A stretch of 47,788 nt of DNA from an uncultured Clostridia bacterium (lineage in GTDB: Bacteria > Bacillota > Clostridia > Lachnospirales > CAG-274), in the NCBI GenBank assembly GCA_947589405.1, contig CANQBT010000001.1, positions 1 through 47,788 of the forward strand, given 5' to 3'. Position numbers and translations under genes: made by a program. Below, piece after piece: positions 8,145-43,445 of this stretch. Position 1 is the stretch's first letter. Each line of letters opens with the position of its first letter. The notes beneath the pieces were generated by a model that was not told the origin of the DNA, did no database searches, and saw only the letters and a program-made list of their open reading frames with translations.

Positions 8145-9470
8145 TTATACGTTAAGATGCTTTCTTATAGAGCTTATAGAGCCTACTGCGCCTATGAGCA
8201 TACCTACAAGAAGAGATACGGGTATTATTACTATAAACAGATCTTCAGCTGTTCTCAGCTCTATAATGCTCCTGAGAGCCGAATATTGAGATGTAAAGAA
8301 GCCGTATAGCTTATAATAGCCAAAAAAGCACAATACAGAAGGTATTGCAGCTCCTATAAGACCGATAATAAGTCCCTCTATTATAAAGGGCCATCTTATG
8401 AACCAGTCTGTAGCGCCTACGTATTTCATAATGTTTATTTCATTCTTTCTTACATATACCGTAAGCTTTATTGTATTTGTAATAATGCCTATGGCAACTA
8501 TACAGAGTATAGCTATGAGCACAACGGCGACCACCTTGAATATAGCGTCTATTGTAATAAGAGTTTCCGTGACCTGCTGAGCATGTCTTATGCTCTCTAT
8601 TCCCTTGAATTCATAGTCTGCATCTCCGGGCTTTGACGCTGTATCAACAGTATTGACCTCCGTAACGGCCTCGCTCTTAATAGAAGGCGTAGGCTTTGCG
8701 TTGGCTGCCTGATCCACACCGGCAGGCGCCTGAGCGTCCTTGTTCACAACGGGTGCCGATGTTGTGGTCTGAGTTACTGCCTGTGAAACAGGCTGAGTCT
8801 GAGTTTCCGCATGGACCTCTTCTGCAAAGGGATCAAAGATCATTGCCGTTTTCTGTGCCTGAGTCGCAGGCTGAGTCGCTGCCTGTGTTGCTGCCTGTGA
8901 AGCAGGCTGTGTCGCTGCCTGTGTTACCGCCTGTGAAGCAGGCTGTGTTGCCGCCTGTGTTGTTGCCTCTGTTGTACGCTCAGTCTGTGCTCTCTCCAAA
9001 GCGCCCTTAGCTATAAGCTCCTGTTCGTAATCCCATTGAAGCTGCTCTATCTGCTTTATGAATTCCTTCTGATACCTTATGGCAGTCAGCTTAATATCAA
9101 GTGAACGGGGGAACGGGTTATCGTCCTCAAGTCCGTCTAAAAGCTCGCTGTCCCACATTGTCTTGGCAGACTCAAGAGCCTCGTCGGCTGACGTATATTC
9201 AACAACTGCCACATGGGGCATCTGCTTTATTCTTTCTTCAAGCTCCTGTACCTCTTCATCTGTAGGAAGATCTCCAAGATACACCGTAACGCCTATGTTG
9301 TTTTCTATCTGATCCAGTACGTTATTTACATTGGCAATAATGCAAAGGGATAATATGACCACAAATATACAGGCGCTTACTATGACTATTGAAGCAAGGC
9401 TCATGAGCCTGTTTTTGAAGATACCCCTGAAACCCTGATCAATAAAGTATTTCCAAGTCCGAAGTTTCAT
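8145..9470 (-). CDS. ftsX: Cell-division ABC transporter permease-like protein FtsX with a long low-complexity insertion
   Basis: N-terminus MKLRTWKYFIDQGFRGIFKNRLMSLASI with TM1, an extracellular domain, and three C-terminal TM helices. Start taken at ATG 9470 (GGTGGTGGA RBS) rather than the track's 9494. Confidence 0.85.
   Translation of the reverse strand: MKLRTWKYFIDQGFRGIFKNRLMSLASIVIVSACIFVVILSLCIIANVNNVLDQIENNIGVTVYLGDLPTDEEVQELEERIKQMPHVAVVEYTSADEALESAKTMWDSELLDGLEDDNPFPRSLDIKLTAIRYQKEFIKQIEQLQWDYEQELIAKGALERAQTERTTEATTQAATQPASQAVTQAATQPASQAATQAATQPATQAQKTAMIFDPFAEEVHAETQTQPVSQAVTQTTTSAPVVNKDAQAPAGVDQAANAKPTPSIKSEAVTEVNTVDTASKPGDADYEFKGIESIRHAQQVTETLITIDAIFKVVAVVLIAILCIVAIGIITNTIKLTVYVRKNEINIMKYVGATDWFIRWPFIIEGLIIGLIGAAIPSVLCFFGYYKLYGFFTSQYSALRSIIELRTAEDLFIVIIPVSLLVGMLIGAVGSISSIRKHLNV
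8857..8975 (-). repeat. Three and a fraction tandem 36-nt repeats inside ftsX
   Basis: Units at 8857-8892, 8893-8928 and 8929-8964, plus a partial fourth. They encode reiterated TQAATQPASQA(V/A). A degenerate extra copy lies near 8775-8805. Confidence 0.85.
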
Positions 9471-11575: not shown

Positions 11576-12493
11576 ATGGCCGGCAGCACAAAATCAAAGG
11601 TAGAGGTCGTAATAGGCGGTAAAATATACAAACTTGCAGGAGATGAAAACCCTGATTATATTCAGAATGTAGCCAGGTATCTGGACAATAAGCTCAATGA
11701 TCTTAAGAGAGCCGCTGCTCCAAGCATAATATATGACGAAAGCTTTCCTATTATATTGGCGCTTAATATAGCAGACGATCTTTTTAAAGAAAGAGAAAAC
11801 AAGGAGGTCGTTGTCACAGAGACAGGGGAGGATCTGAGCAGCAGACTGAGAGAGCTTACCGAAATAAAGAACCAGCTTGCCATAAGGACTAACGACTACA
11901 AGCTTCTTCTGGATCAGTTTGAGAGCAAAAGCAGCGAGGTAGACGGACTCAAGGCAGAGATAATAAGCAAGGACGACAAAATGGAAGCCCTTAACAAAAA
12001 GCTTGAGGACGCAAAGACGGCTCTTGAGGAAGCCAATAAAAAGATAGATGAAAAATCCGTATATATAACCAATCTGAACGCTAAAATATCAGACAAGAAT
12101 CAGGAGCTGAACAGCCTTAGCAAAAAGCTTGCCGAGAAAAATTCGGCTCTTAACGATCTTAACAAGAAATCAGCTGACAGGAATATAAAGCTCAATACGG
12201 TAAATAAGGAAAGAGATGACCTTGCCATAAAGCTTAAATCCGCCAACAGCAGCATAAAGACTCTTGAAGGAAATGCCGTAAAGGCAGCTGAAGCAATTAC
12301 TCAGCTTACAGCCCAAAGAGATGATTACAAAGCAAAATACGAGCTTCTGAACGAACAGTTTGAGGTATATAAGAAGAGCCTTGAGGTAAGCAATGAAACT
12401 CAGCTTAAGGCAGCCTTTGCCAAAATAAAGGCGGAAAACCTAGAGCTTATGAGAAAAGCGGAAGCATTGGAAGCTCAGCTCAGCAAGAAATAA
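11576..12493 (+). CDS. zapA: ZapA-domain cell-division protein with a long coiled-coil extension
   Basis: N-terminal ~90 aa match the ZapA pattern (VEVVIGGKIYKLAGDENPDYIQNVARYLDNKL). The remaining ~210 aa are K/E/L/N-rich heptads. AAGGAGG RBS. Confidence 0.8.
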   Translation: MAGSTKSKVEVVIGGKIYKLAGDENPDYIQNVARYLDNKLNDLKRAAAPSIIYDESFPIILALNIADDLFKERENKEVVVTETGEDLSSRLRELTEIKNQLAIRTNDYKLLLDQFESKSSEVDGLKAEIISKDDKMEALNKKLEDAKTALEEANKKIDEKSVYITNLNAKISDKNQELNSLSKKLAEKNSALNDLNKKSADRNIKLNTVNKERDDLAIKLKSANSSIKTLEGNAVKAAEAITQLTAQRDDYKAKYELLNEQFEVYKKSLEVSNETQLKAAFAKIKAENLELMRKAEALEAQLSKK

Positions 12494-18016: not shown

Positions 18017-18664
18017 TTATTCTGCTTCTGTAGTTGTTTCTGTAGCTTCTTCGTCAGCTTCTGTTGTTTCCTCAGCTGCTTCTGTAGCTTCTTCATCAGC
18101 TTCGGTCACATTCTCTGTAGCTTCCTCAGTAACGGCTTCAGTCGTTGCCTCAGCAGTAGTTTCCTCTGTCTTTGCGGCGTTTACGGTAACAGTTCTTGTT
18201 GCTGCGTCCCACTCTACCTCAAAGCCAAAGTATTCTGAAAGGAATCTGACGGGAACCATAGTTCTGCTGTTTATGATAGTTGCAGGAGTGTCAATGTCTA
18301 CAGTATATTCTGTATCTCCGTCGTTATAAACAAGCTTAGGCTCGCCTATAGTCATGGAAGCTGTAAGACCGTCCTTTTCCATAACAACTGTCTTTGTATC
18401 TGCCTTCCAGTCAACGTCACAGCCAAGAGCCTCTGCAATTACTCTGAAAGGTACCATAGTTCTGTCGTTTACTATAACGGCAGGCTGGTCGCTCTCTACA
18501 GCGGCGCCTGATACTATAACTGTAACGGCTGAACCTGATGCTACGGGAGCTGCTGCAACAAGAGCAGGAGCATCTGCTTCTCCGTCACCTGCTGCATGAA
18601 CAGGTACCATTATTGCTGCCATTGTCATTGCCATAGCAAGTAACATACATAATTTCTTTTTCAT
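18017..18664 (-). CDS. Secreted protein with two copper-amine-oxidase-N-like stalk domains and an acidic T/E/A repeat tail
   Basis: Start moved to ATG 18664 (MKKKLCMLLAMAMT signal peptide, GGAGGAAAC RBS). There are two stalk-type motifs, VNDRTMVPFRVIAEALGCDVDW and INSRTMVPVRFLSEYFGFEVEW. The C-terminal ~50 aa are TEEAT-type repeats. Confidence 0.75.
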   Translation of the reverse strand: MKKKLCMLLAMAMTMAAIMVPVHAAGDGEADAPALVAAAPVASGSAVTVIVSGAAVESDQPAVIVNDRTMVPFRVIAEALGCDVDWKADTKTVVMEKDGLTASMTIGEPKLVYNDGDTEYTVDIDTPATIINSRTMVPVRFLSEYFGFEVEWDAATRTVTVNAAKTEETTAEATTEAVTEEATENVTEADEEATEAAEETTEADEEATETTTEAE

Positions 18665-22170: not shown

Positions 22171-23610
22171 ATGAGAGAAAGGATAAAGGAATTTATAAGA
22201 AAAATATTCCACATAAGAGAGATGGAGACCTCTCTTAAAACTGAGCTTTTGGCAGGAGTGACAAATTATTTTACAATAATATATGCCGTAATGCTTGTGC
22301 CTGAAATACTCATTGGCGCATTTCCGGGAGCCGTTGACGCTCATGGCGAGCTTGTGAAGGACGCTGTGATAGCGGGAAACTTTACGGCTGCCGAAATGCT
22401 TGTGGCGCTGACTGCCGTAGCCTTTGCGGTATCGGGCTTTGCGTCAATATTTATGGGCGTTGTTACCAATATGCCCTTTGTGCAGGGTCCCAGCATAGCC
22501 ATAGGCACATTCGTTACCTATACGATATGCAAGGGCTTTGGATATACCTATAATCAGGCTCTTGCAATAGTGTTTGTTTCCGGCTTGCTTTTCTTTGTGC
22601 TTTCGGCTACGGGTGCAGAGGAGAAAATACACAAGATAGTCCCTCATAATATAAAGTGTGCCGTAAGCGCAGGCATAGGCTTTTTCATAGCCTTTACGGG
22701 AATTGAGAAAGCTCATATAATAGACTATACGGAAGAAGGCGTGCGTTTTTTCAGCTTCAATATGGCTGACAAGGACAACCTGAGCGCCATGCTTGCCATA
22801 GCCATAGTCATATTCATAGTGATACTTATCAAAAAGCATGTACACGGCGCCATATTCATAGGCAAAATGGTCTGCATAGCCCTTGCTTTTCCTCTTGGTC
22901 TTATAAATGCGCTGGGACACGGCAGCTTTGGCTACAGCATACCTATAACAAGCCTTGCGTTCAAGCTGGATTTCAGGTTATTGCTGGATATGTCATCGCC
23001 ATGGGATATAAGCAAGAGTATCGTAACGGTGATCATAATAGTATTTGCCATATGCATTATGGATATATTTGAAACAATGACTCTGCTCATAGCTATGGGT
23101 AATTATTCAGGCATTACATTTGAAAAGATAAAGGATAAGAAACAGCTCCCCAGAATACTTGAGGTAGACGCCATTACAACCTCCGCAGGAGCCTTGATGG
23201 GCTCTACAAGCGTATCCACATATGTAGAATCCTCTACAGGAGTTATAGAAGGAGGACGTACCGGACTTACGTCTGTGATCACAGGTCTGTTTTTCCTGCT
23301 GTCCATATCCTTTACACCTCTTATGAAGGTGGTGCCCTCAGCCGCTACGGCTACAACGCTTATTGTTGCAGGCGTTATGATGATGGGCGTTCTTAAGAAT
23401 ATTAATTTTGACGATATAGCCGAAGCTGTGCCGGCATTCTTCACCATGATGCTTATGCCGATAACAGGCAGTCTGCTCATAGGCATAGGCTTCGGAGTCA
23501 TAACCTATGTGCTCATACATGCTTTTATGGGATATAATACAAAAATAAACGCTGCCCTTGTGGCTCTCGGTATACTTATGTTTATTACGCTTATGTTTAT
23601 ACCGAGATGA
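22171..23610 (+). CDS. NCS2-family nucleobase permease (AzgA/PbuG-like adenine/guanine/hypoxanthine permease)
   Basis: N-terminal pattern FHIREMETSLKTELLAGVTNYFTIIYAVMLVPEIL. About 12 TM segments. Motif VESSTGVIEGGRTGLT. GGGAGG RBS. Confidence 0.85.
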   Translation: MRERIKEFIRKIFHIREMETSLKTELLAGVTNYFTIIYAVMLVPEILIGAFPGAVDAHGELVKDAVIAGNFTAAEMLVALTAVAFAVSGFASIFMGVVTNMPFVQGPSIAIGTFVTYTICKGFGYTYNQALAIVFVSGLLFFVLSATGAEEKIHKIVPHNIKCAVSAGIGFFIAFTGIEKAHIIDYTEEGVRFFSFNMADKDNLSAMLAIAIVIFIVILIKKHVHGAIFIGKMVCIALAFPLGLINALGHGSFGYSIPITSLAFKLDFRLLLDMSSPWDISKSIVTVIIIVFAICIMDIFETMTLLIAMGNYSGITFEKIKDKKQLPRILEVDAITTSAGALMGSTSVSTYVESSTGVIEGGRTGLTSVITGLFFLLSISFTPLMKVVPSAATATTLIVAGVMMMGVLKNINFDDIAEAVPAFFTMMLMPITGSLLIGIGFGVITYVLIHAFMGYNTKINAALVALGILMFITLMFIPR

Positions 23611-23630: not shown

Positions 23631-23830
23631 TTGGCTTTTGCAAAGCAAAAGTGCCGGGACGCCTTATGTTTATGCTCCTCAAATGAAAAACCGATATTTA
23701 TCACTAGATACGCATACGAAAGCCGTCCCTTAGCCTTTTAAGGCGTAAGGGAAGGTGTCCGCCCAATCATTTCTTTACAATAACATTACATTTGCATTGG
23801 GCGGACGGAAGGGTCGACCTTCCCCATAAC
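23631..23830 (+). repeat. Structured intergenic repeat, diverged copy C
   Basis: Shares module order and the right-end sequence TTTGCAT(T)GGGC(G/T)GAC(G/T)GAAGGGTCGA with the copies at 33370-33765 and 42981-43257. Has hairpins GTCCGCCCAAT (23757-23767) with ATTGGGCGGAC (23796-23806), and GGAAGG-GTCGA-CCTTCC. Confidence 0.6.
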
Positions 23831-23854
23831 TTAATCACCAACCCCACAAATCAA

Positions 23855-23895
23855 AAGAAGCTATCACAGGTCTTATGCGACAGCTTCTTTTTTTA
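23855..23895. terminator. Bidirectional terminator (livF on minus; permease and repeat transcripts on plus)
   Basis: AAGAAGCTATC (23855-23865) pairs with GACAGCTTCTT (23879-23889). Followed by T-runs on both strands. Ends 6 nt before the livF stop. Confidence 0.65.
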
Positions 23896-23900
23896 TATTA

Positions 23901-24614
23901 TCATTTTTTCTTTCCAAGATAAAGCTCCTTGACATGTTCATTTGCCAGAAGCTCGGGACCTGTGCCCTCAAGACCGATACTGCCTGTTTCCATAACATAG
24001 CCGTAATGGGCTATTTTAAGAGCCGCATTTGCATTCTGCTCAATAAGGAGAACGGTCATGTTCTGCTCTTGGTTTACCTTTTGTATTATCCTGAAAATAT
24101 CCTTTACCACAAGAGGAGCAAGACCAAGACTGGGTTCGTCCATCATAAGCACCTTTGGCTTGCTCATAAGAGCACGACCTACGGCAAGCATCTGCTGTTC
24201 ACCGCCTGAGAGAGTGCCGCTGAGCTGCTTTGATCTTTCCTTAAGTATAGGAAACATCTCATGTACAAAATCTATGTCCTTCTTGAAGTTTTCCTTGTCC
24301 TTACGGAGATAAGCGCCTATCATAAGGTTCTCATCTACGGTCATATCCGCAAATACATGTCTGCCTTCGGGAACAAGGGTTATACCCATTTTTACAATAT
24401 CCTTTGTGTTAAGTCCTATAAGCTCCTTGCCGTCATAGGTAATAGAGCCTGATACGGGACTTACAAGGCCTGTTATCGTGCGAAGAGTAGTGCTCTTGCC
24501 TGCGCCGTTGGCGCCTACAAGTGTTATTATTTTTCCTTCCTCCACATTCATGGATATGCCGTTAAGGGCGGTTATACCGCCGTATTTTACAACCAGATCT
24601 TTTATCTCAAGCAT
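23901..24614 (-). CDS. livF: Branched-chain amino acid ABC transporter ATP-binding protein LivF
   Basis: Walker A GANGAGKST, signature LSGGEQQM, Walker B LMMDEPSLGLAP. TGATG stop/start overlap with livG. Confidence 0.9.
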   Translation of the reverse strand: MLEIKDLVVKYGGITALNGISMNVEEGKIITLVGANGAGKSTTLRTITGLVSPVSGSITYDGKELIGLNTKDIVKMGITLVPEGRHVFADMTVDENLMIGAYLRKDKENFKKDIDFVHEMFPILKERSKQLSGTLSGGEQQMLAVGRALMSKPKVLMMDEPSLGLAPLVVKDIFRIIQKVNQEQNMTVLLIEQNANAALKIAHYGYVMETGSIGLEGTGPELLANEHVKELYLGKKK

Positions 24615-33313: not shown

Positions 33314-33369
33314 GTGGTGTGAGAGTTGTTTTTATTTTTGCAAGTATCAACATTATTTTTGCTTTAGAA

Positions 33370-33765
33370 CGACCCTTCCACCATTTCAAACAATGTTTGA
33401 AAGGTTCAGCACTTTTGCTTTGCAAAAGCAAGCCTACGGCTTGGCGGATAATTCTTCCGCTGCAATGTCCCCCTCCCCTCCGACGCCCTACGGGCTATCA
33501 GCACTTTCGGCAAGCCGAAAGCCGACCTGACGGTCGTCCGATAAATCTTTCGTTGCAACGGGGAGGCTAGAGGTGGGGAGGAAAGGGAAGCCTTAAGTTT
33601 ATGTTCTTTAAATACTTTTATAATGTTAAAAAGCTAGTATTTATAACTAACTAAAAAATTATGGGGAACTACAAACTAGGCTCCCCTTGGAGCTAGGGGA
33701 GCTGTCAGCCCAACCAAGAATTACAAGTTGTGAACGGATTTGCATGGGCTGACTGAAGGGTCGAC
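33370..33765 (+). repeat. Structured intergenic repeat, long copy A
   Basis: Ends CGACCCTTC (33370-33378) and GAAGGGTCG (33755-33763) are inverted complements. Internal hairpins and C-rich/G-rich tracts are shared with copy B. Its last 59 nt are 56/59 identical to copy B by my manual alignment. Confidence 0.7.
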
Positions 33766-33792
33766 TCAATTTTGTAAAAAAATAATTAAGAA

Positions 33793-34209
33793 TTATAGAT
33801 TACTCTTGATTTTTTCAATTATTTCTGTATACTCAGTATCAGTAAGATATTTAGGAGGCTCCACATTCATTTCAAATGTGCCGCCAAAGCCGTAGCCGTC
33901 CTTCTGCTTCGGTACGATATGCACGTGAAGATGAGGAAGCGTATCGCTGTACATTCCATAATTTACTTTGGCAGGGTTTACGCTTTTCATTATCGCCCTT
34001 CCTACAGTCTGCATATCCTCTATAAACAGAGCGGAATCCTCTTTTGAAAGCTCTGTAAAGTCCACATTGTGCTCCTTATAGGCGATAACGCAGCGTCCGT
34101 AATAGGTCTGTTCTCTGAAAAGATAGAGCTTTGTGACCTTAAGGTCTGCAATGTAGATCATGAGGGAATCTAATTTTTCCTTATTTTTGCAATATAAACA
34201 ATTTTCCAT
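33793..34209 (-). CDS. HIT-family (histidine triad) protein
   Basis: Histidine triad HLHVHIVP. The track ORF opens at TTG 34224. ATG 34209 (MENCLYCKNKEK) sits 8 nt after a GGAGG and is preferred. Confidence 0.85.
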   Translation of the reverse strand: MENCLYCKNKEKLDSLMIYIADLKVTKLYLFREQTYYGRCVIAYKEHNVDFTELSKEDSALFIEDMQTVGRAIMKSVNPAKVNYGMYSDTLPHLHVHIVPKQKDGYGFGGTFEMNVEPPKYLTDTEYTEIIEKIKSNL

Positions 34210-34321
34210 TTCATTTACCTCCAAAATATGTTATACTTTAATTATATAATGACATTATGCTACTGTCAATTTTATTTTTGACGATATTTTGCAAATTATA
34301 TTGAAAAAAGGAGAGATGCAT

Positions 34322-35794
34322 ATGATAACGCTGGCACGTGATTTTTTTGTGATAGGTGCTGTTATAATGTATATCACAAATATCATTTTTGCCATTTTTG
34401 TCGTTTTCTTTGAGAAGAAAAATCCCGGCGTTACATGGGCTTGGCTCATGGTGCTTGTAATGATACCGTACTTTGGTTTTCTTTTTTACATCGTTCTGGG
34501 CTTTGAGGGCAGGAAGCATAAGGTTTTTGGCAAAAAGCTCACGGAGGATATAAAGTTCTTTGAAGAATTTACAGAAAAATATCCTCAATATGCTGCCGAT
34601 GAAAAGCTTATGGACGAAATAGACGGTATAATACCCAGCAAAAATACTGCCTATCTCAATAACCTTGTGGTAATGAATAAAAACAGCGGCAGAAGTCCTT
34701 ACAGGCAGAACAACAGCGTAGAGGTATTTCATGAAGGCAATACCAAATTTGAAAGCCTTCTTGAGGATATTAAAAACGCCAAAAGCTTTGTACATATGGA
34801 ATATTATCTTATGCATGACGACTCTCTGGGCGTGCGTATTATGGAAGCCCTTGCCGAAAAGGCCCGTCAGGGCGTAGAGGTAAAGGTAATATATGACGGT
34901 ATGGGAAACGCAAGCAACAAGCCTTCTTTTAAGAAAATACTTGTAAACGCCGGCGGAGAGGTCAGGATATTCCTTCCTCCAAGAGGTATAAGGGTCAATT
35001 ACAGAGATCATAGGAAAATAGCTGTAATAGACGGCAAAACAGGCTATATAGGCGGTCTTAATATAGGCGATGAATATATAAGCCTTAAAAAGCGCTTCGG
35101 CTTCTGGAGAGATTCCCATATAAAGATAACAGGCGATTCCGTAAAGGATCTGGAGCTTAGGTTCATGATGGACTGGAATTTCACAAAGGGAGAAAACATA
35201 GGACTTGACGAAAAGTACTTCCCGACTGTTGAAAATCAAGAAGAAAATGTAAATATGCAGATAATATCCAGCGGACCCGATACCCAATGGAACAGCATAT
35301 TGAACAGCTACTTCAAGATGGTGACAGAAGCCAATAAAAATATATATATAGCAACTCCTTATTTCGTACCTGACGACAGTCTTTTGGTAGCTCTGAGGAC
35401 AGCGGCTCTTTCAGGGATAGACGTAAGGATAATAATACCGGGAAAGCCCGATCACCCCTTTGTGCATTCGGGAAGTCTAAGCTATATGGGAGAGCTTATG
35501 GAGGCAGGCGTAAGATGCTATGAATACAGAAAGGGATTTATACACGCCAAAGTAATGACAATAGACGGCATGATAACATCTGTCGGTACTGCCAATATGG
35601 ATATAAGAAGCTTCAGTCTTAATTTTGAAGTAAACGCTCTTATATATGATGAAAATGTAACTGCCGAATTTGAAAAGCAGTTCAATATCGACTTTAACGA
35701 CTGTGATGAAATAATACCTGAGGAATATCAAAATCGCGGAAGAATAGCAAAAGCAAAGGAAGCCTTTGCAAGACTGATTTCTCCGCTGCTGTAA
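34322..35794 (+). CDS. cls: Cardiolipin synthase
   Basis: Two N-terminal TM helices and two PLD HKD motifs (HRKIAVIDGKTGYIGGLNIGDEY and HAKVMTIDGMITSVGTANMD). Start placed at ATG 34322, 6 nt after AAGGAGAG. Confidence 0.9.
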   Translation: MITLARDFFVIGAVIMYITNIIFAIFVVFFEKKNPGVTWAWLMVLVMIPYFGFLFYIVLGFEGRKHKVFGKKLTEDIKFFEEFTEKYPQYAADEKLMDEIDGIIPSKNTAYLNNLVVMNKNSGRSPYRQNNSVEVFHEGNTKFESLLEDIKNAKSFVHMEYYLMHDDSLGVRIMEALAEKARQGVEVKVIYDGMGNASNKPSFKKILVNAGGEVRIFLPPRGIRVNYRDHRKIAVIDGKTGYIGGLNIGDEYISLKKRFGFWRDSHIKITGDSVKDLELRFMMDWNFTKGENIGLDEKYFPTVENQEENVNMQIISSGPDTQWNSILNSYFKMVTEANKNIYIATPYFVPDDSLLVALRTAALSGIDVRIIIPGKPDHPFVHSGSLSYMGELMEAGVRCYEYRKGFIHAKVMTIDGMITSVGTANMDIRSFSLNFEVNALIYDENVTAEFEKQFNIDFNDCDEIIPEEYQNRGRIAKAKEAFARLISPLL

Positions 35795-35806
35795 GGAGGA
35801 GAATAT

Positions 35807-36790
35807 ATGAAGATCAGACGATTCCTGAGCTGTACCGTATTCATACTTGCATTCGCATCTGTTATGAACGTATATGCAAAGGATATAAAGCTGCTTATAG
35901 AGGGACATAATATAGAAACGGATACACCTCCCGTTATAATGTATGACAGAGTGATGCTGCCTGTAAGGACCATATTTGAAGGGGTAGGAGCCGAGCTTGC
36001 CTGGGACGGTGAAAGCAAGACTCTTACCGGGACAAAGGGCAGTCATATTGTCGTAATGACAGTAGGCAAGGAGGAATATACCATTGACGGTGAAGAGCAT
36101 ACTATGAGCGTACCTCCCTGCATACTTAACGACAGAGTATTTGCTTCTGCAAGATACGTAGCGGAAGCCTTCGGCTATACCGTAGACTGGGATAAGGATC
36201 AGCTTATTGCGGAAATAAAAGCCGAAAAGCCTCAGGAGGAAACAACAAAGGTCAAAGACGAACAGAAGGATGAGCACAAGGACGAACAGAAGGATGAGCA
36301 TAAGGACGAACAAAAGACCGAAAAGGCTGAACCAAGTACGGAAACTACCACAAAAGCCATTACTCCTGTGGCAGCTGTGACTCCTTCTCTTTACAACAAG
36401 GTAAAAGAGGATCTGAATATTACCTTTGACGGATATACTCTTGGTACGGCAGAGCATATAAACAGATTTAAAATAGCTACCGTCAATTATTACAAAAACA
36501 GCTGGAGCGAAATGGCAAAGACCGATATAGACAAAACCTTCGTCAGCTACAGCAAGACCCTTTACGACAGAATAATAAGCACAGCCAAGAGAATAGATTA
36601 TGTATATACAAGGGAAAAATATCTCGGAAAAAGAGAGATAAGCGACGACTGCCGTGAAAATAAGGCAATATTGAAGGATTATATAGACCAATATTTTGCC
36701 TGCGAAACTCTTGAGGAATGCAAGGATATAAACAACAAGCTGCGTGAATTCTACACAGGTATAAAAACAAAATATCCCGAATATGAATAA
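35807..36790 (+). CDS. Secreted copper-amine-oxidase-N-like stalk-domain protein with a KDEQKDEH repeat and an unknown C-terminal domain
   Basis: Signal peptide. Stalk motifs ([44 protein letters not shown]). Charged repeat linker. GGAGGAG RBS 12 nt after the cls stop. Confidence 0.75.
36254..36316 (+). repeat. 2.6 tandem copies of a 24-nt repeat inside the stalk-domain gene
   Basis: AAAGACGAACAGAAGGATGAGCAC (36254-36277), AAGGACGAACAGAAGGATGAGCAT (36278-36301), and a partial third copy to 36316. Encodes KDEQKDEH reiterations. Confidence 0.8.
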
Positions 36791-36816
36791 ATATTTGTGC
36801 TAAAAGGGAGGTCGAA

Positions 36817-38391
36817 ATGAACAAGCTTATTCAATTTAAAAACATTGTGAAGGAATTTGATTCACAGATAGTTTTAAAAGGTATAAACTTAGATATATAT
36901 GAAAATGAATTTGTAACGCTGTTAGGCCCAAGCGGCTGCGGAAAGACTACCATTCTGAGAATACTGGGAGGATTCATTGAGCCAAATGAAGGCGAGGTGC
37001 TCTTTGACGGAAAGAATATGGCAGGCGTACCTCCCTACAAAAGGGAAATAAATACTGTATTCCAGAAATATGCCCTTTTCCCACATCTTAACGTATACGA
37101 CAATATTGCCTTTGGCCTTAAAATAAAAAAGGAGCCGAAGGACATTATAGAACAGAAGGTAATGCGTATGCTCAGGCTTGTGGGACTGGAGGAATACGGC
37201 AAAAGAAGAGTGACTGAAATGTCAGGCGGACAGCAGCAGAGAGTCGCCATTGCAAGGGCTCTTGTAAACGAACCAAAGGTCCTTCTCCTTGACGAACCTC
37301 TCGGCGCCCTTGATCTCAAGCTGAGAAAGGAAATGCAAAGAGAGCTTAAAAAGATACAGAAGGAGGTTGGTATCACATTTATATATGTTACCCACGACCA
37401 GGAAGAAGCTCTTACCATGTCGGACAAAATAGTCATAATGAATCAAGGCGAAATACAGCAGATAGGCTCTCCCATCGATATATATAACGAACCTGCAAAC
37501 AGATTTGCCGCCAACTTCATAGGCGAAAGCAACATAATAGACGGAATTATGCTGGAGGACTGCAAGGTCATGTTTGAGGACACGGTTTTTGACTGTGTGG
37601 ACAAGGGCTTTGAAGAAAACGAAAGCGTAGATGTGGTGATACGCCCTGAGGATATTAATATTGTGCCCACTAAAAAAGGAAAACTGATCGGTATTGTGAA
37701 ATCTGTTCTCTTCAAGGGCGTACACTACGAAACCATAGTTGAAACAGAAACAGGCACGAAGATAACCGTGCAGATGACTGTGTCCGATCCCAAGCCCGTA
37801 CAGAATCTATCTGCCGATGAATCCATGAGCGCCAATGACTTCTACATTGACATAAGCGATATTCCCGAGCTGACCATTGCGGACATAACCGCAAGAGCAG
37901 ACGCTCAGGCATGGAAAACCTCTACGGAGGAGCTTGTGTCCATCACTAAGGTGGACTATGAGCTAAAGGAGGAAAAGGGAAGCTATCCCGTTACCTTCTC
38001 CACATCAGCCGGCACTATGCACACCATACACATGATAGTTGCCGATGAGAACAAGGTAGAAGCGGAAAAGACAAATGAAGTCATATACGCCGTTAATATA
38101 TACAAAACAATAGATGATATTAAGGAAAGCATTGCCCTTGAAACAGATCTGAAGACATGGGCAAACGCCCAGGCATGGACCTCAGACGGAGATACGAGCA
38201 TAGCCATTACAAATGTAGAGTATGACTTCGATCCTGAAAATATAGAGATCGGAACATATGATATTACATTCGGCACAAGAGGCTATGAATACAAGATAGA
38301 CACTACTGAGGAATACAATGTAGGCGACAGAGTAGGCCTTACGTTTTCACCTGATGACCTGCATATTATGCCAAAGGAGGGCAGACTATGA
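36817..38391 (+). CDS. potA: Spermidine/putrescine ABC transporter ATP-binding protein PotA with a ~180-aa insertion
   Basis: Walker [11 protein letters not shown]-loop [10 protein letters not shown], signature [15 protein letters not shown], Walker [17 protein letters not shown]-like C-terminus is split by two tandem repeats. GGGAGG RBS. Confidence 0.9.
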
Positions 38392-39227
38392 AAAGCTTCA
38401 GACGAATGGCTTATCCCTATCTGATATGGTCAGCGGTCTTTATAGTGCTGCCTATGCTGCTTATTATAGTATACGCCTTTACAAAGGAAGGAAATTCCGT
38501 TATAAACATACAGTTTACCCTTGACAATTTTGCAAAATTCTTTAGCGATAAGGTATTCTTTTATGTGCTCAGGCGTTCCATATACATTGCAATAGTCACT
38601 ACTGTAGTATGTATACTTCTGGGGTATCCCCTTGCTTATATAATTGCCTGTATGAAGCCTAAATCACAGGTCGTAATGGTATTTATAGTAACTATCCCCA
38701 CATGGATAAACATGCTCGTAAGGACATATGCATGGAGAGGTATACTTGATAAAAACGGTATGCTGAACAGCATTCTCGGTCTATTCGGAATAGGACCCAT
38801 ACAATTTCTGGAAACTGCCTTTGCGGTGGTGCTGGGCATGGTATATAATTTTATACCCTTTATGATACTACAGATATATAATTCCCTGAGCAAAATGGAC
38901 GACAGCTATCTGGAGGCAGCTGCCGATCTTGGCGCAGACAAGGTACAGACATTTATGAAGGTGGTGCTTCCTCTTTCCATACCGGGAGTCATAAGCGGTA
39001 TAACTCTTGTATTCCTGCCTGCTGTGTCCAGCTTCTTTATACCTAAGCTGTTAGGCGGAGGAAAATATGTACTTATAGGAAATGTGATCGAAAGTCAGTT
39101 CCTGACAAGCGGCGACTGGGGCTTTGGCTCAGCCATATCGCTTATTATGGCAATTATAATAATCATTTCAATGCATATTACCAAAAAGCTGGATAAGGAT
39201 AACTCGGCAGAAGGGGGGAATGGGTAA
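38388..39227 (+). CDS. potB: Spermidine/putrescine ABC transporter permease PotB
   Basis: Six-TM binding-protein-dependent permease with EAA-type loop [25 protein letters not shown] overlap with potA. Confidence 0.87.
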
Positions 39228-40024
39228 TGAAAAAGAAAAAACACATTCTCTCTAAAATATTTGCAGGTCTTATGATAGCATTTTTCTATCTGCCTATACT
39301 CTATACCATCGTTTTTTCATTTAATGATTCCCGTTCATTAAGTGTATTTGACGGATTCTCGCTCAGATGGTATGAGAAAATGTTCCACAATTCGGATATG
39401 ATGGAATCCGTATTCTATACTATAGCTATAGCCCTGCTGGCAACATTTATATCCACCATAGCAGGCACAATAGCCGCCATAGGCATATCAAAATCAGGCA
39501 GGATATTAAAAGGTGTCGTAGAGCAGGTGAACAATCTGCCAATAATGAATCCCGAAATAGTAACGGCAATAGGACTGCTTATGCTTTTCAGCTCTCTGGC
39601 AGTTTCAAAGGGCTTTACCACTCTTCTGCTGGCTCACATTATGTTCTGCATACCCTATGTGATACTCAGCATTTTGCCTAAGCTGCGATCTCTTGATCCC
39701 AACATATTGGATGCGGCTCTGGATCTGGGCTGTACTCCCGTACAGGCTCTTGTGAAGGTAATAGTCCCTCAGATAACCTCCGGCATATTTGCAGGAGCGC
39801 TGATAGCCTTTACCATGAGCTTTGACGATTTTGTAATATCATATTTTGTAACAGGCAACGGTGTAAACAATATCTCAATAATGATATACACCATGTCAAA
39901 AAGAATAAATCCTACGATAAACGCATTGTCATCATTGATAATAGCTATTATCACGGCAGTACTTTTAATACTCAATATTACACCAATTATACTGGAAAAG
40001 CGAAAGGAGAAAAAACAAAAATGA
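39227..40024 (+). CDS. potC: Spermidine/putrescine ABC transporter permease PotC
   Basis: Permease with EAA-type loop LDAALDLGCTPVQALVKVIVP. TAATG overlap with potB. Confidence 0.87.
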   Translation: MKKKKHILSKIFAGLMIAFFYLPILYTIVFSFNDSRSLSVFDGFSLRWYEKMFHNSDMMESVFYTIAIALLATFISTIAGTIAAIGISKSGRILKGVVEQVNNLPIMNPEIVTAIGLLMLFSSLAVSKGFTTLLLAHIMFCIPYVILSILPKLRSLDPNILDAALDLGCTPVQALVKVIVPQITSGIFAGALIAFTMSFDDFVISYFVTGNGVNNISIMIYTMSKRINPTINALSSLIIAIITAVLLILNITPIILEKRKEKKQK

Positions 40025-41097
40025 AAAAATTACTGGCTTTACTCTTAAGCGGTGCTTTTATTCTGGCAGGCTGCGGAGGCAGCGGCTCAGAAGATGTTGA
40101 GAAAGTAGAGGGATTTGAGGGACAGACCCTTAAATTCTATAACTGGGGAGAATATATAGGCGAAGATGTTATTTCTAATTTTGAAAAGATGTATGATGTA
40201 ACAGTCGTTTCAGAATATTTCGATTCAAACGAAATGATGTATACCAAGTTAAGCGCAGGGGATTCCTATGACCTGCTTGTTCCCTCAGATTATATGATAG
40301 AACGACTTATAAAGGAGGATATGCTCCAGCCCATAGATAAATCAAAAATACCCAATCTTGCCAATCTCACAGAAGGCGTAAGGAATCTGGAATATGATCC
40401 CGACAACACATATTCGGTACCTTATTTCTGGGGTACGGTAGGTCTTGTCTATAATAAAAACAATGTTCCGCCTGAGGAGATCGAAGCAGAGGGCTACAAT
40501 ATACTCAAAAACACAAAGTACAAGGGAAGCATTTATATTTACGATTCAGAGCGTGATTCCTTTATGACGGCATTCAAGGCTCTGGGCTATTCTATGAATA
40601 CCGAAAACGAAGATGAAATAAACGCTGCCTATAAATGGCTTTCAGACATAAACGCCACAATGGAGCCGGCATATGTTACAGATGAGGTAATAGACGCTAT
40701 GGCAAACGGCAATAAGGACATAGCCGTTGTATACAGCGGAGATGCCGCATTTATACTTTCACAGAATCCCGACATGGGCTACTGCGAACCAAAGGAGGGT
40801 TCAAATCTCTGGAGCGATGCTATGGTGATCCCCAAGAATGCTGAAAATCCCGAGCTTGCTCACGAATTTATGAACTATATACTCAGCTACGAGGCCTCTA
40901 AGGACAATTCCGTGACAGTAGGCTATGCTTCTTCAAACGATCAGGTGCTTAAGGAGCTTTCCTCAGAAGGCGGAGAATATTATCAGAACGAAGCATATCT
41001 GCCAAGAACAGGCTATGAAAAAGATGAAATTTTCCACGATAACGAAACGCTTAGAAAAAAGCTTTCCGAACTGTGGATAAAAGTAAAGGCTGAATGA
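40021..41097 (+). CDS. potD: Spermidine/putrescine-binding lipoprotein PotD
   Basis: Lipobox FILAGCGG. PotD-like motifs (LKFYNWGEYI, YDLLVPSDYM, VPYFWGTVGLVYN). ATGA overlap with potC. Confidence 0.87.
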   Translation: MKKLLALLLSGAFILAGCGGSGSEDVEKVEGFEGQTLKFYNWGEYIGEDVISNFEKMYDVTVVSEYFDSNEMMYTKLSAGDSYDLLVPSDYMIERLIKEDMLQPIDKSKIPNLANLTEGVRNLEYDPDNTYSVPYFWGTVGLVYNKNNVPPEEIEAEGYNILKNTKYKGSIYIYDSERDSFMTAFKALGYSMNTENEDEINAAYKWLSDINATMEPAYVTDEVIDAMANGNKDIAVVYSGDAAFILSQNPDMGYCEPKEGSNLWSDAMVIPKNAENPELAHEFMNYILSYEASKDNSVTVGYASSNDQVLKELSSEGGEYYQNEAYLPRTGYEKDEIFHDNETLRKKLSELWIKVKAE

Positions 41098-41141
41098 TCG
41101 GCCAATAAAAATATAAGCTGAATAGAAAGGGAGGTATTATC

Positions 41142-42893
41142 ATGAATTCAGGCTTAAGAAAAATTATAGGCGCAGCTGCGGCCCTGACACTTCTTGTCAG
41201 CTCATTTGCCGTATATGCAGCAGACAGTACCGATACTGCCAAAGCTGAGATATATGGCTCCGTACAGCAGGTAGTCGGCTTCTCCGACGCTACCGGCTAT
41301 ACTACCGAGACCTATTACACAGGGGACAAGAAGAACAACAAATGCGATGCAAACGTAAGCATAAAAAATGCAGCAGAGCAGGTTCCGCTTAAAGGAGCAA
41401 AGGTAAACATCAAAAACAGCGATTCTACTATTGACAAAACGATAGCCGTAAAGGCAGACGGTACTTTCAGTTATTCGGGTGAAGCCAAAAAGCCTCTTGC
41501 AGACGGTGTGTATACGATAACGGCAGCTGCCGAAAACGGCACTCCCATAGGCGGCGCTCAGACTGTAACAATATCAGGTGGCAAAGCCGACAAAGGCGCA
41601 AGCTTCGTACAGGACGACAGACTTGTGTACACCTTCCAGACGGATATAAAGGACTTTAAGGACGAGATACTCGTTATGAAGGACGGCAAAGAGGCATTCA
41701 GACTGCTGGATAAGTCCTATCACTACCAGACTCAGCCTGCCGGCTCTCCAAGCGATATTGCAAGACGTGCCAGCGTTATACACAGAGTAAAGATGCCTGT
41801 AGGCACATATTCCTTCTTTGTTGTAAAGCCCGGTACCGATATTTCATCAAAGAGATATACTATCTCCGCTTCAGACACCTCAGGCATAAGCTCTATCGAC
41901 ATTACTCAAAGAGGAGCAAGCATGCTCTATCTTGTGCCAAAGGTAAATGACTCGGTTATGGAGGCCGCTAAGGCTGCCGCTGATAAAATAGGCAACGTTA
42001 GAAGGGGTATATATACCTTCACTCCTTCACCTTCATCTAAAAATGCAACTGTAAATCACTCTCTTGGCGGAGTTCCCACACAGGACTATGTTGCAGACGA
42101 CATCGGCGCTTACGGAATACTTGGCGAAGATGCGCAATATAAGAATTCCATTATGGTCAACGGAGACAACTATGTTGTGTTTAAGATAAAGGCAGGCGAT
42201 GAATTTGTTACCAAAATAAATGTAACAAAGCAGTCCTACATACTTGCCGATGTAAACTATACAAGAAAGGTAGAGGGCAGAGATCAGATAGCTATAGACA
42301 GCCGTTTCGGAAATGTTACTCTTACTCTTGGCGAGGGTACCTACGTGCTGTATACTACTGCCGAGAACGAAGGATATGTTAATTCAATAGAATTCAATTA
42401 TTCCTCACCGTTTAATGTTATACAAAGCGTTCCCGCTTCAAAGACAGCATCTGACGGAGCAAAAATGGTAGTAGGCTCCTTTGATACCACAAACAATATA
42501 GAGGATTACTCCAAGTTTGCTATAATGATCTCCTCTAACAGAGATGCTCTTGACTATTCAAGCATAAACAATGAACATAATTCAGAACCTATTCCCGGAG
42601 ATAACACAAGCGTTACATCGGAAGGCGGTAAAATATATGTTCTCAATGCAAAATACGATACAATGGGAGCAAGCACCGCTACTGTAATAATAGAAGAGAC
42701 CGAAACTCTTTTCAAAAAGGTCGTAGATGCTTCAGGCGCAACAATTGCCGAAACAATAGACGATGACTTCTATTACTGTTCCGCAAGAATAAACAATGTA
42801 AGCGGTACATTATATGCCGTAGGCGCAGCTAAAAGAGCAGATGAGCCCGACGGCAAATGGATGGTACAGACCACTCCTTTTGTAATTCAGTAA
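41142..42893 (+). CDS. Hypothetical secreted protein (583 aa)
   Basis: Signal peptide (AAAALTLLVSSFAVYAADS). The N-terminal ~100 aa resemble a small beta-sandwich (LKGAKVNIKNSDSTIDKTIAVKADGTFSYSG). The rest is unrecognised. GGGAGG RBS, 44 nt after potD. Confidence 0.7.
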   Translation: MNSGLRKIIGAAAALTLLVSSFAVYAADSTDTAKAEIYGSVQQVVGFSDATGYTTETYYTGDKKNNKCDANVSIKNAAEQVPLKGAKVNIKNSDSTIDKTIAVKADGTFSYSGEAKKPLADGVYTITAAAENGTPIGGAQTVTISGGKADKGASFVQDDRLVYTFQTDIKDFKDEILVMKDGKEAFRLLDKSYHYQTQPAGSPSDIARRASVIHRVKMPVGTYSFFVVKPGTDISSKRYTISASDTSGISSIDITQRGASMLYLVPKVNDSVMEAAKAAADKIGNVRRGIYTFTPSPSSKNATVNHSLGGVPTQDYVADDIGAYGILGEDAQYKNSIMVNGDNYVVFKIKAGDEFVTKINVTKQSYILADVNYTRKVEGRDQIAIDSRFGNVTLTLGEGTYVLYTTAENEGYVNSIEFNYSSPFNVIQSVPASKTASDGAKMVVGSFDTTNNIEDYSKFAIMISSNRDALDYSSINNEHNSEPIPGDNTSVTSEGGKIYVLNAKYDTMGASTATVIIEETETLFKKVVDASGATIAETIDDDFYYCSARINNVSGTLYAVGAAKRADEPDGKWMVQTTPFVIQ

Positions 42894-42901
42894 TATCTAT
42901 A

Positions 42902-42933
42902 CTGCCTGCAAAGTATTTGCAGGCAGTTTTTTT
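42902..42933 (+). terminator. Strong rho-independent terminator of the cls-pot gene string
   Basis: CTGCCTGCAAA (42902-42912) pairs perfectly with TTTGCAGGCAG (42916-42926), followed by T7. Confidence 0.88.
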
Positions 42934-42980
42934 GTTGGCGAAGGATTTTTTCCTGTGACCCGGTCATGGGGAATTTTTAA

Positions 42981-43257
42981 ATCGACCCTTCCACCATTTC
43001 AAACAATAAAATTGTTTGAAATGGTCCCCCTCCCCTCCGACGCCCTGTGGGCTAGGGGAGGCTAAAGGTGGGAGGATAAGGGACGCCTTAAGATAAGGCA
43101 CCCCAAATGCCTTAATAATGTTGAAAAATTTGTATTCATAACAAACTAAAAAATTATGGAGAACTACTGTCTAGGCTCCCCATTCGTAAGGGGAGCTCAG
43201 CCCAACCAAGAATTGCAAGTTATGAACAGATTTGCATGGGCTGACTGAAGGGTCGAT
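42981..43257 (+). repeat. Structured intergenic repeat, compact copy B
   Basis: Perfect 11-nt inverted termini ATCGACCCTTC (42981-42991) and GAAGGGTCGAT (43247-43257). Perfect 15-bp hairpin ACCATTTCAAACAAT-aaa-ATTGTTTGAAATGGT. Same C-rich/G-rich tracts and right-arm hairpins as copy A. Confidence 0.72.
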
Positions 43258-43445
43258 ACTAATACAAACACCAAACTTCCCTCTCTCCGTCCATTCGGCA
43301 GCATAATATTCCATAACAGCGGCAATATTGCTCCCTCTCCGGATCCATTTTGCTAAAAATTTCAAATTTATGTTGCTATATATTCGTTTTTGGGTTAAAA
43401 TAAACTTGGTATATTATAAAATCCTGTTGGAGAAAGGAGACTATT

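Follow-up and report, generated by a model that had tools for sequence, protein, structure and literature searches.

A Diverged, Left-Truncated Repeat of an Uncultured Gut Clostridia Bacterium Is Probably a Decayed Copy of a Modular, MITE-like Element

Copy C, a repeat located in a 47,788-nt stretch of DNA (the whole stretch that was analysed, hereafter the window), is a real, diverged and left-truncated member of a family of palindromic intergenic elements. This family belongs to one lineage of uncultured rabbit-gut Clostridia. We conclude that copy C is probably a decayed copy, truncated on the left, of a non-coding, multi-copy and modular inverted-repeat element which resembles MITEs. It is an ordinary kind of bacterial repeat rather than a new RNA gene. 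Membership in the MITE class is incomplete because neither a target duplication nor a partner IS was found.

Results and Discussion

Genomic Setting and Anatomy of Copy C

Copy C (positions 23631-23830) is housed in a gap of 290 nt between two convergent genes (Table 1). The stop codon of the permease gene is followed by copy C and then by the sole terminator-like hairpin of the gap. This hairpin resembles the hairpin type adjoining copies D, E and F of the family; a simple terminator scan did not call it. The window matches contigs from rabbit-gut metagenome runs. The closest relatives of the window proteins come from uncultured Clostridia, and the named relatives (Tyzzerella, [Clostridium] colinum) are only ~55% identical. 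In four relatives copy C was absent from the 3' region of the permease gene.

Copy C consists only of the H3 block, the centre, H4, H5, the right end and the outer segment. Folding of its three right-hand hairpins gave z values of -7.2 (+ strand) and -5.6 (- strand). An earlier note on this DNA had described the right end GGAAGGGTCGA as present in copy C and its distant left-end partner as missing, and a motif search of the window agrees. Matches to TCGACCCTTC were located at positions 23808, 33369, 33755, 42982 and 43247, and the motif count in the window was six versus 1.3 expected by chance. No left-end partner TCGACCCTTC was found near copy C, which in the test for both ends (TCGACCCTTC ... 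GAAGGGTCGA) carried the right end only. The sequence CCTTCC(CC), reported to follow the right end directly and to form a local hairpin with GGAAGG, was read at this very place. The hairpin at the left edge was likewise correctly recognized as the reverse complement of a module of copy A (21/21 match to 33409-33429). It marks the left break point of copy C, where the left half of the family is missing. A fragment of a second, smaller repeat caps the break.

Table 1: Positions of the elements, their modules and neighbouring features. Positions refer to the window unless a locus (L001, L002, L013) is given.
Feature	Position	Strand	Description
NCS2/xanthine-uracil permease	22171-23610	+	Gene on the permease side of the gap with copy C; stop codon at 23610
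Hairpin GGCTTTTGCAAAGCAAAAGTGCC	23633-23655	+	Reverse complement of hairpin 1 of the 62-nt module that copy A contains twice; 21/21 match to 33429-33409
Conserved block GGGACGCCTTATG..CTCAAATG	23656-23685	+	H3 region of the family; 80% to A and B, 86% to D
Shortened AT-rich centre	23686-23721	+	Colinear with D, without the ~14-nt TAATAATGTT block
Hairpin H4	23722-23755	+	GCCGTCCCTT-AGCC TTTTAA GGCGT-AAGGGAAGG; lower stem as in the left H4 of D, plus apical insertion
Long-loop hairpin H5	23757-23806	+	GTCCGCCCAAT (23757-23767), 28-nt loop, ATTGGGCGGAC (23796-23806); from covariation and model
Right terminal inverted repeat core GGAAGGGTCGA	23807-23817	+	From sequence reading, motif search and alignment
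8-nt insert CCTTCCCC	23818-23825	+	Pairs locally with GGAAGG; from alignment and folding
Outer right segment (ATAACTTAATCACCAACCCCAC)	23826-23847	+	Related to TACTnAnnnAAACAAAAATTCATCCCC of other copies, similarity weak
Terminator-like hairpin	23853-23895		A-run before, T-run after; between the convergent permease and livF-like genes; from sequence reading
livF-like ABC ATPase	23901-24614	-	Convergent neighbour on the other side of copy C
Copy A, end to end	33369-33764	+	TCGACCCTTC...GAAGGGTCGA ends
Copy A, full length	33318-33767	+	With outer left segment and two nested 62-nt modules (33405-33466, 33498-33559)
Copy B, end to end	42982-43256	+	TCGACCCTTC...GAAGGGTCGA ends
Copy B, full length	42955-43285	+	Compact, with both outer segments; from comparison with A and alignment
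Copy D	L001 1005-747		MAG Lapin-030 bin20, another species; found by pattern scan
Copy E	L002 4972-5272		Related genome; locus fetched via homologues of window proteins
Solo right end F	L013 about 11933-12030		Related genome; locus fetched via homologues of window proteins
Terminator-type hairpins	L001 1044-1091; L002 5317-5364; L013 11850-11894, 7342-7383; window 23853-23895		Instances of the recurring hairpin

Copy C as a Member of the Family

The earlier note had seen in copy C the module order of the right part of copies A and B at much lower identity. Colinearity and BLAST comparison confirmed this. The BLAST match to A and B amounted to 71% over 72-76 nt (E about 1e-4 to 1e-5) plus a block of 29-30 nt at 80-83%. 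The match to copy D was 73-75% over 107-118 nt (E about 1e-12). Copies C and D are colinear over ~186 nt, and copy C is also colinear with E, A and B. Copy C is a true relative of the other copies. Covariance model R2, which was built from seven right-end instances with copy C left out, found copy C at 56.9 bits and an E value of 2.8e-15. The only other matches of this model in the window were A, B and their inverted ends.

Architecture of the Element

Loci from related genomes were obtained through homologues of two window proteins. Copy A equals copy B plus two nested insertions of ~62 nt. In copies D and E the order is outer inverted segment, TCGACCCTTC, inverted H5, inverted H4, AT-rich centre, H4, H5, GAAGGGTCGA and again an outer inverted segment. 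Both are near-palindromes over their full length, and D is 62% self-complementary across the whole element. The left arm of A and B, unlike that of D and E, holds other hairpin modules. Conservation runs ~27 nt past TCGA (TACTnAnnnAAACAAAAATTCATCCCC), with the inverse GGGGAtGAATTTTTGTTT...GAGTA on the left side. Thus, the elements are longer than the earlier reader thought, and a full element measures ~300-450 nt. The terminal inverted repeat of A, B, D and E is composed of a core of 10-11 bp and the outer inverted segment of ~27 nt. The ends of the element are poorly defined because only six elements were readable in full. Reading of A, B and D revealed no conserved ORF, and an interpretation as genes for small proteins was rejected for this reason.

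Copy Number, Dispersal, and Mobility

Three copies are located in the window, and the others were found in L001, L002 and L013, which represent three other genomes. For an analysis of sequencing depth, contigs from four metagenome runs were placed on A, B and C. The k-mer depth of the element modules was 3-25 times that of the flanks; many short contigs ended inside the elements, and the flanks differed between copies. Contigs in which a right end is joined head-to-tail to a left end were also present. One X3 contig joins position 33317 to 33768 via 15 unrelated nucleotides (GGTTGTCCATTAGGT) which replace 450 nt. Its left match comprises only ~18 nt. This contig appears to represent a strain allele without copy A and is not a clean empty site. 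Downstream of an orthologous gene for a 585-aa protein, the window has copy A and L013 has the solo end F in inverted orientation; L015 has no element there. At the orthologous sites examined in related species the element was not conserved.

Searches for further copies and for a mobility gene gave the following results. Model R1 detected no additional copy in 234 kb of related loci, and in the window and these 234 kb no transposase or autonomous element with such ends was present. Among 20 window proteins scanned, none contained a Y1-transposase domain. A blastn search against plasmid and phage collections gave no match to the family. A gapped pattern run against genome contigs, JGI metagenomes and viral contigs yielded copy D in L001 as the sole real extra copy, and two further patterns (viral contigs, one of them also JGI metagenomes) yielded none. 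Two metagenome matches, L011 and L012, were discarded as chance matches inside GC-rich coding sequence. A look-up of the permease encoded in the window returned no record. Target-site duplications were absent from A, B, D and E at both the TCGA boundary and the outer GGGG boundary, these boundaries being uncertain.

Several known classes of element were also considered for the family. Integron attC sites, group II introns and IS200/IS605-type ends were rejected because neither the motifs at the ends nor the general organization agrees with them. The outer end begins with GGGG, but a Tn3-type repeat of 38 bp with its 5-bp duplication was rejected as well, as no duplication was found.

Copies A and B are direct copies with a block of 9.5 kb between them (window 33768-42954). 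This block contains genes for a HIT protein, a cardiolipin synthase, a Cu_amine_oxidN1 protein, a potABCD-like ABC transporter and a 583-aa protein. The genes which flank the block have orthologues that are adjacent in a related genome (L015 11737-11983). This arrangement suggests that the block is a rearrangement bounded by the repeats. An origin of A and B as part of a gene duplication was rejected, as the 585-aa and 583-aa proteins encoded upstream are unrelated.

Covariation of the Hairpin Stems and Behaviour of the Ends

The stem of H5 is GTCAGCCCA/TGGGCTGAC in A and B. In copy C the 5' arm has C for A, the 3' arm has G for T, and the stem is two pairs longer. The compensatory change and the stem extension reported by the earlier note are therefore real, but the change is not private to copy C. 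It is also present in D, which indicates one inherited event. For a broader comparison the right ends were aligned in eight instances from four genomes (A, B, C, both ends of D, both ends of E, and F). In this alignment 89.7% of the H5 cells were paired, compared to at most 42.5% in slid-partner controls. Four of the 11 pairs had changed on both sides (U-A/G-C/C-G, A-U/C-G, C-G/G-C and A-U/G-C). Seven double changes were counted versus one G-U change, and the substitutions require at least five separate events. The covariation score of H5 was reached by none of 500 shuffles. With more copies aligned, the stem stays paired through such double changes. The loop of H5 comprised 28 nt in all eight instances. 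In F a C.A mismatch in the core stem was left uncorrected.

At the position of H4, the GC hairpin of A and B was thought to be replaced in copy C by an unrelated pairing. The pairing itself, CCCTTAGCC/GGC-G-TAAGGG, is present within 23722-23755. It is not unrelated; it corresponds to a homologous H4 with an apical insertion. The lower stem CGTCCCTT/AAGGGAAG, including a G.A mismatch, equals the left H4 of D, and an apical AGCC-TTTTAA-GGCGT has been added. This H4 variant is multi-copy (depth 25 versus about 3 in run X6). Elsewhere it is followed by the ACCATTTCAAACAAT hairpin, which is known from the left arm of A and B.

The terminal repeat behaved differently from these stems. The right end of copy E is GATAGGGTCGA in place of TCGACCCTTC, and the change is not compensated in the left end of E, which results in a mismatch. 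In the solo end F, GAAGGG is unpaired and has no partner at all. The proposal that GAAGGG is paired in all copies by different means can thus not be upheld. The mismatch in E and the missing partner in F show that the ends behave like a terminal inverted repeat whose sequence is conserved, rather than like a covarying helix. Of the idea that the fold and not the sequence is conserved, the part which concerns H5 and the lower stem of H4 stands, as both stay paired through double changes when further copies are compared; for the terminal repeat it does not hold. The spacer between TCGA and the outer segment varies from 0 to 6 nt among the other copies and measures 8 nt in copy C. Alternatively, the 8-nt insert of copy C may derive from a left end (TCGACC-TTCCcCCAT compared to TCGACCCTTCCACCAT).

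The 62-nt Module and Neighbouring Repeats

The module nested twice in copy A consists of 62 nt which form three hairpins ("cloverleaf"). It starts with TCAGCAC, ends with TGCAAT/C and has TAAwTCTT as a conserved loop. The two instances in A show covariation of its stems, and its k-mer depth exceeded that of the flank more than 10-fold. In other copies of the large element the module, whose loops are UNCG-like, is missing at exactly these points or is located at other helix junctions. No target duplication was seen at the module. It was also considered as tRNA-like; ARAGORN found no tRNA.

A terminator-type hairpin (AAGAAGCTGTCAyGTTATGAC..GTCATAAc..GACAGCTT followed by a T-run) recurs at unrelated loci of several species. 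In D, E and F it directly adjoins one of the outer ends, and it was also found alone. Hence, the large element seems to be placed next to such terminators. The long intergenic gaps of relatives are filled by a different mosaic of hairpin modules (GCGTGTCGATTTTATCGACACGC; GAAAGAAATGCTTGCATTTCTTTC), as in L002 9461-9973 and L015 7217-7330. The extra module inside copy E is represented in this mosaic in inverse orientation. The L015 instance of the mosaic follows the livF orthologue, which is the position occupied by copy C in the window. Tandem repeats of 12-nt and 21-nt period occur inside long ORFs on the - strand (window 8844-8975 and 18022-18129) and are probably low-complexity regions of surface proteins.

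DNA Element or Structured RNA

A conserved fold is not by itself the mark of an RNA, and several observations speak against a strand-specific one. When both strands of six copies were folded, the - strand was as stable as or more stable than the + strand in five of them. G-U pairs made up 1-13% of the predicted pairs in the six copies and at most 8% in the five copies longer than 100 nt. The changes in the stems are nearly all from one Watson-Crick pair to another. Copies A and B lie after terminators and copy C before one, so the transcript context is inconsistent. The orientation relative to the neighbouring gene is one way for A, B, C and D and the other way for E and F. Together with the palindromic build of D and E, these features are better explained by DNA palindromes of a mobile repeat than by a strand-specific RNA.

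In the proposed mechanism an enzyme acting in trans, with its gene elsewhere, would spread the family as DNA, or would once have spread it. Multiplication would be limited to copies with end-proximal hairpins that still fold, so that the stems would stay paired while the sequence drifts. Correction from arm to arm of the palindromes during replication may contribute to the pairing. Copy C, being one-ended, would no longer be able to move. Located between the permease stop codon and the sole terminator-like hairpin, it is probably co-transcribed as a structured 3' UTR, where it would have at most a side effect on mRNA stability. The pairing of the stems could be due to selection on transposition-competent folded ends, to selection on RNA or to palindrome correction.

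The most serious alternative, which we nevertheless regard as unlikely, is a structured RNA, either an sRNA gene or a cis-acting 3' UTR element acting as mRNA stabiliser, terminator helper or protein sponge. Copy C would then be a functional short form with its end closed by the local hairpin. The folds are strong (z -5 to -8), H5 covaries with a loop of constant length, and the position of copy C between stop codon and terminator-like hairpin would suit such a role. Furthermore, the loops of the modules are often UNCG-like (TACG, TTCG) on one strand, the + strand, which hints at selection on RNA. Transcription and compensatory changes are documented for the known repeats bcr1 and ERIC (PMC3184786). 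The strand equivalence, the rarity of G-U pairs, the near lack of G-U intermediates in H5, the full-length palindromes of D and E and the mixed context and orientation described above all stand against an RNA, as does the lack of conservation of the element at orthologous sites. Moreover, a promoter scan restricted to the intergenic region of copy C revealed a single promoter-like site, which was weak and lay beside the terminator, outside the element. A search against Rfam 15 gave no match across the whole window, and around A, B and C only generic hairpin matches below the gathering threshold appeared.

The stems might also be paired without any selection, if gene conversion or template switching within a strand carried mutations from one palindrome arm to the other. 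The correction of quasi-palindromes is established as a source of mutations. It would account for Watson-Crick to Watson-Crick changes almost without G-U intermediates and for the equivalence of the strands, and CCTTCC(CC) beside GGAAGG in copy C looks like a templated palindrome extension. As the whole explanation we consider arm copying improbable. The 28-nt loop of H5 is long for an efficient snap-back, and both the terminal repeat of E and the C.A mismatch of F were left uncorrected. Such copying also explains paired stems and not the identity of the element, and it is compatible with the mobile DNA repeat favoured here.

We give equally little credence to a reading in which the family is not a classical cut-and-paste MITE. 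The elements would be sets of exchangeable hairpin modules whose movement relies on the recognition of folded single-stranded DNA or RNA and leaves no target duplication. The 62-nt unit would then be the smallest mobile unit, possibly a self-contained mobile module of an undescribed kind, and copy C would carry a fragment of it.

Finally, it is very improbable that GGAAGGGTCGACCTTCC at the right end of copy C is an empty or ancestral target palindrome, or a junction with a deleted tandem neighbour, instead of a fold-closing device: the insert region does match the left end of A and B in 14/16 positions (one mismatch and one gap), reaching 5 nt beyond the palindrome, and the suggested check for recurring junctions of right and left ends did retrieve head-to-tail ones with 6-47 nt between the ends in metagenome contigs, but the motif GGGTCGACC occurred nowhere else in the window or 18 loci, the sequence after it resembles the outer right segment and not the left arm, and no empty outer palindrome was found. 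For want of any empty example, the outer palindrome was likewise rejected as an independent insertion target.

The decayed mobile repeat which we favour adds one more family to the many palindromic repeats of bacterial intergenic regions, here from an uncultured lineage of gut Clostridia, and this alone matters little. The elements of the family break metagenome assemblies of the lineage and mark strain differences and rearrangement points. They could also pass for structured RNA genes in covariation screens. As a natural example of stems that are paired through changes of the Watson-Crick type only, they bear on the question of upkeep at the DNA level versus the RNA level.

Comparison with Known Repeat Systems

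Integron attC sites have a length of 57-141 bp and end in RYYYAAC/GTTRRRY. Like these sites, the elements are located downstream of genes, are imperfect palindromes and are conserved more in structure than in sequence. Unlike them, they are accompanied by no integrase gene or cassette array here and are 2-4 times longer.

What is conserved in REPINs is the hairpin, in which two-sided compensatory changes occur frequently (PMC3116915). As in REPINs and REPs, the hairpin is kept in the family, and truncated singlets of those repeats are seen as dead remnants, as copy C would be. REPs are 20-40 bp long, carry GTAG or CGTC tags and are associated with RAYT transposases; none of these was seen here, and the hairpins of the family varied without a common tag. 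The pneumococcal SPRITE repeat is found preferentially at gene 3' ends, above all those of convergent genes, and is tied to terminator-like hairpins (PMC3184786). The placement of the family with terminator-like hairpins at gene 3' ends is similar. SPRITE, with ~105 nt, is itself terminator-like, whereas here a separate terminator-type hairpin lies beside the element.

BOX of S. pneumoniae (boxA-boxB(n)-boxC) and the enterobacterial BIMEs share with the family conserved end modules and variable internal ones, as well as intergenic, tandem or clustered arrangements (PMC3184786, PMC2817692). The module sequences are unrelated, and the 62-nt three-hairpin unit at several helix junctions sets the family apart.

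In bcr1 of the Bacillus cereus group compensatory base changes keep a cruciform-like fold (PMC3184786). The present family differs from bcr1 with its 5-bp repeats and from RUP of Streptococcus pneumoniae with its classic target duplications in that no flanking direct repeats were found. It also differs from both in its unrelated sequence, in the lack of a known partner IS and in its longer build (~300-450 nt) of exchangeable hairpin modules. In common with MITEs, bcr1 and RUP, its elements are small, non-coding, multi-copy and intergenic, and possess terminal inverted repeats and a cruciform-like predicted fold.
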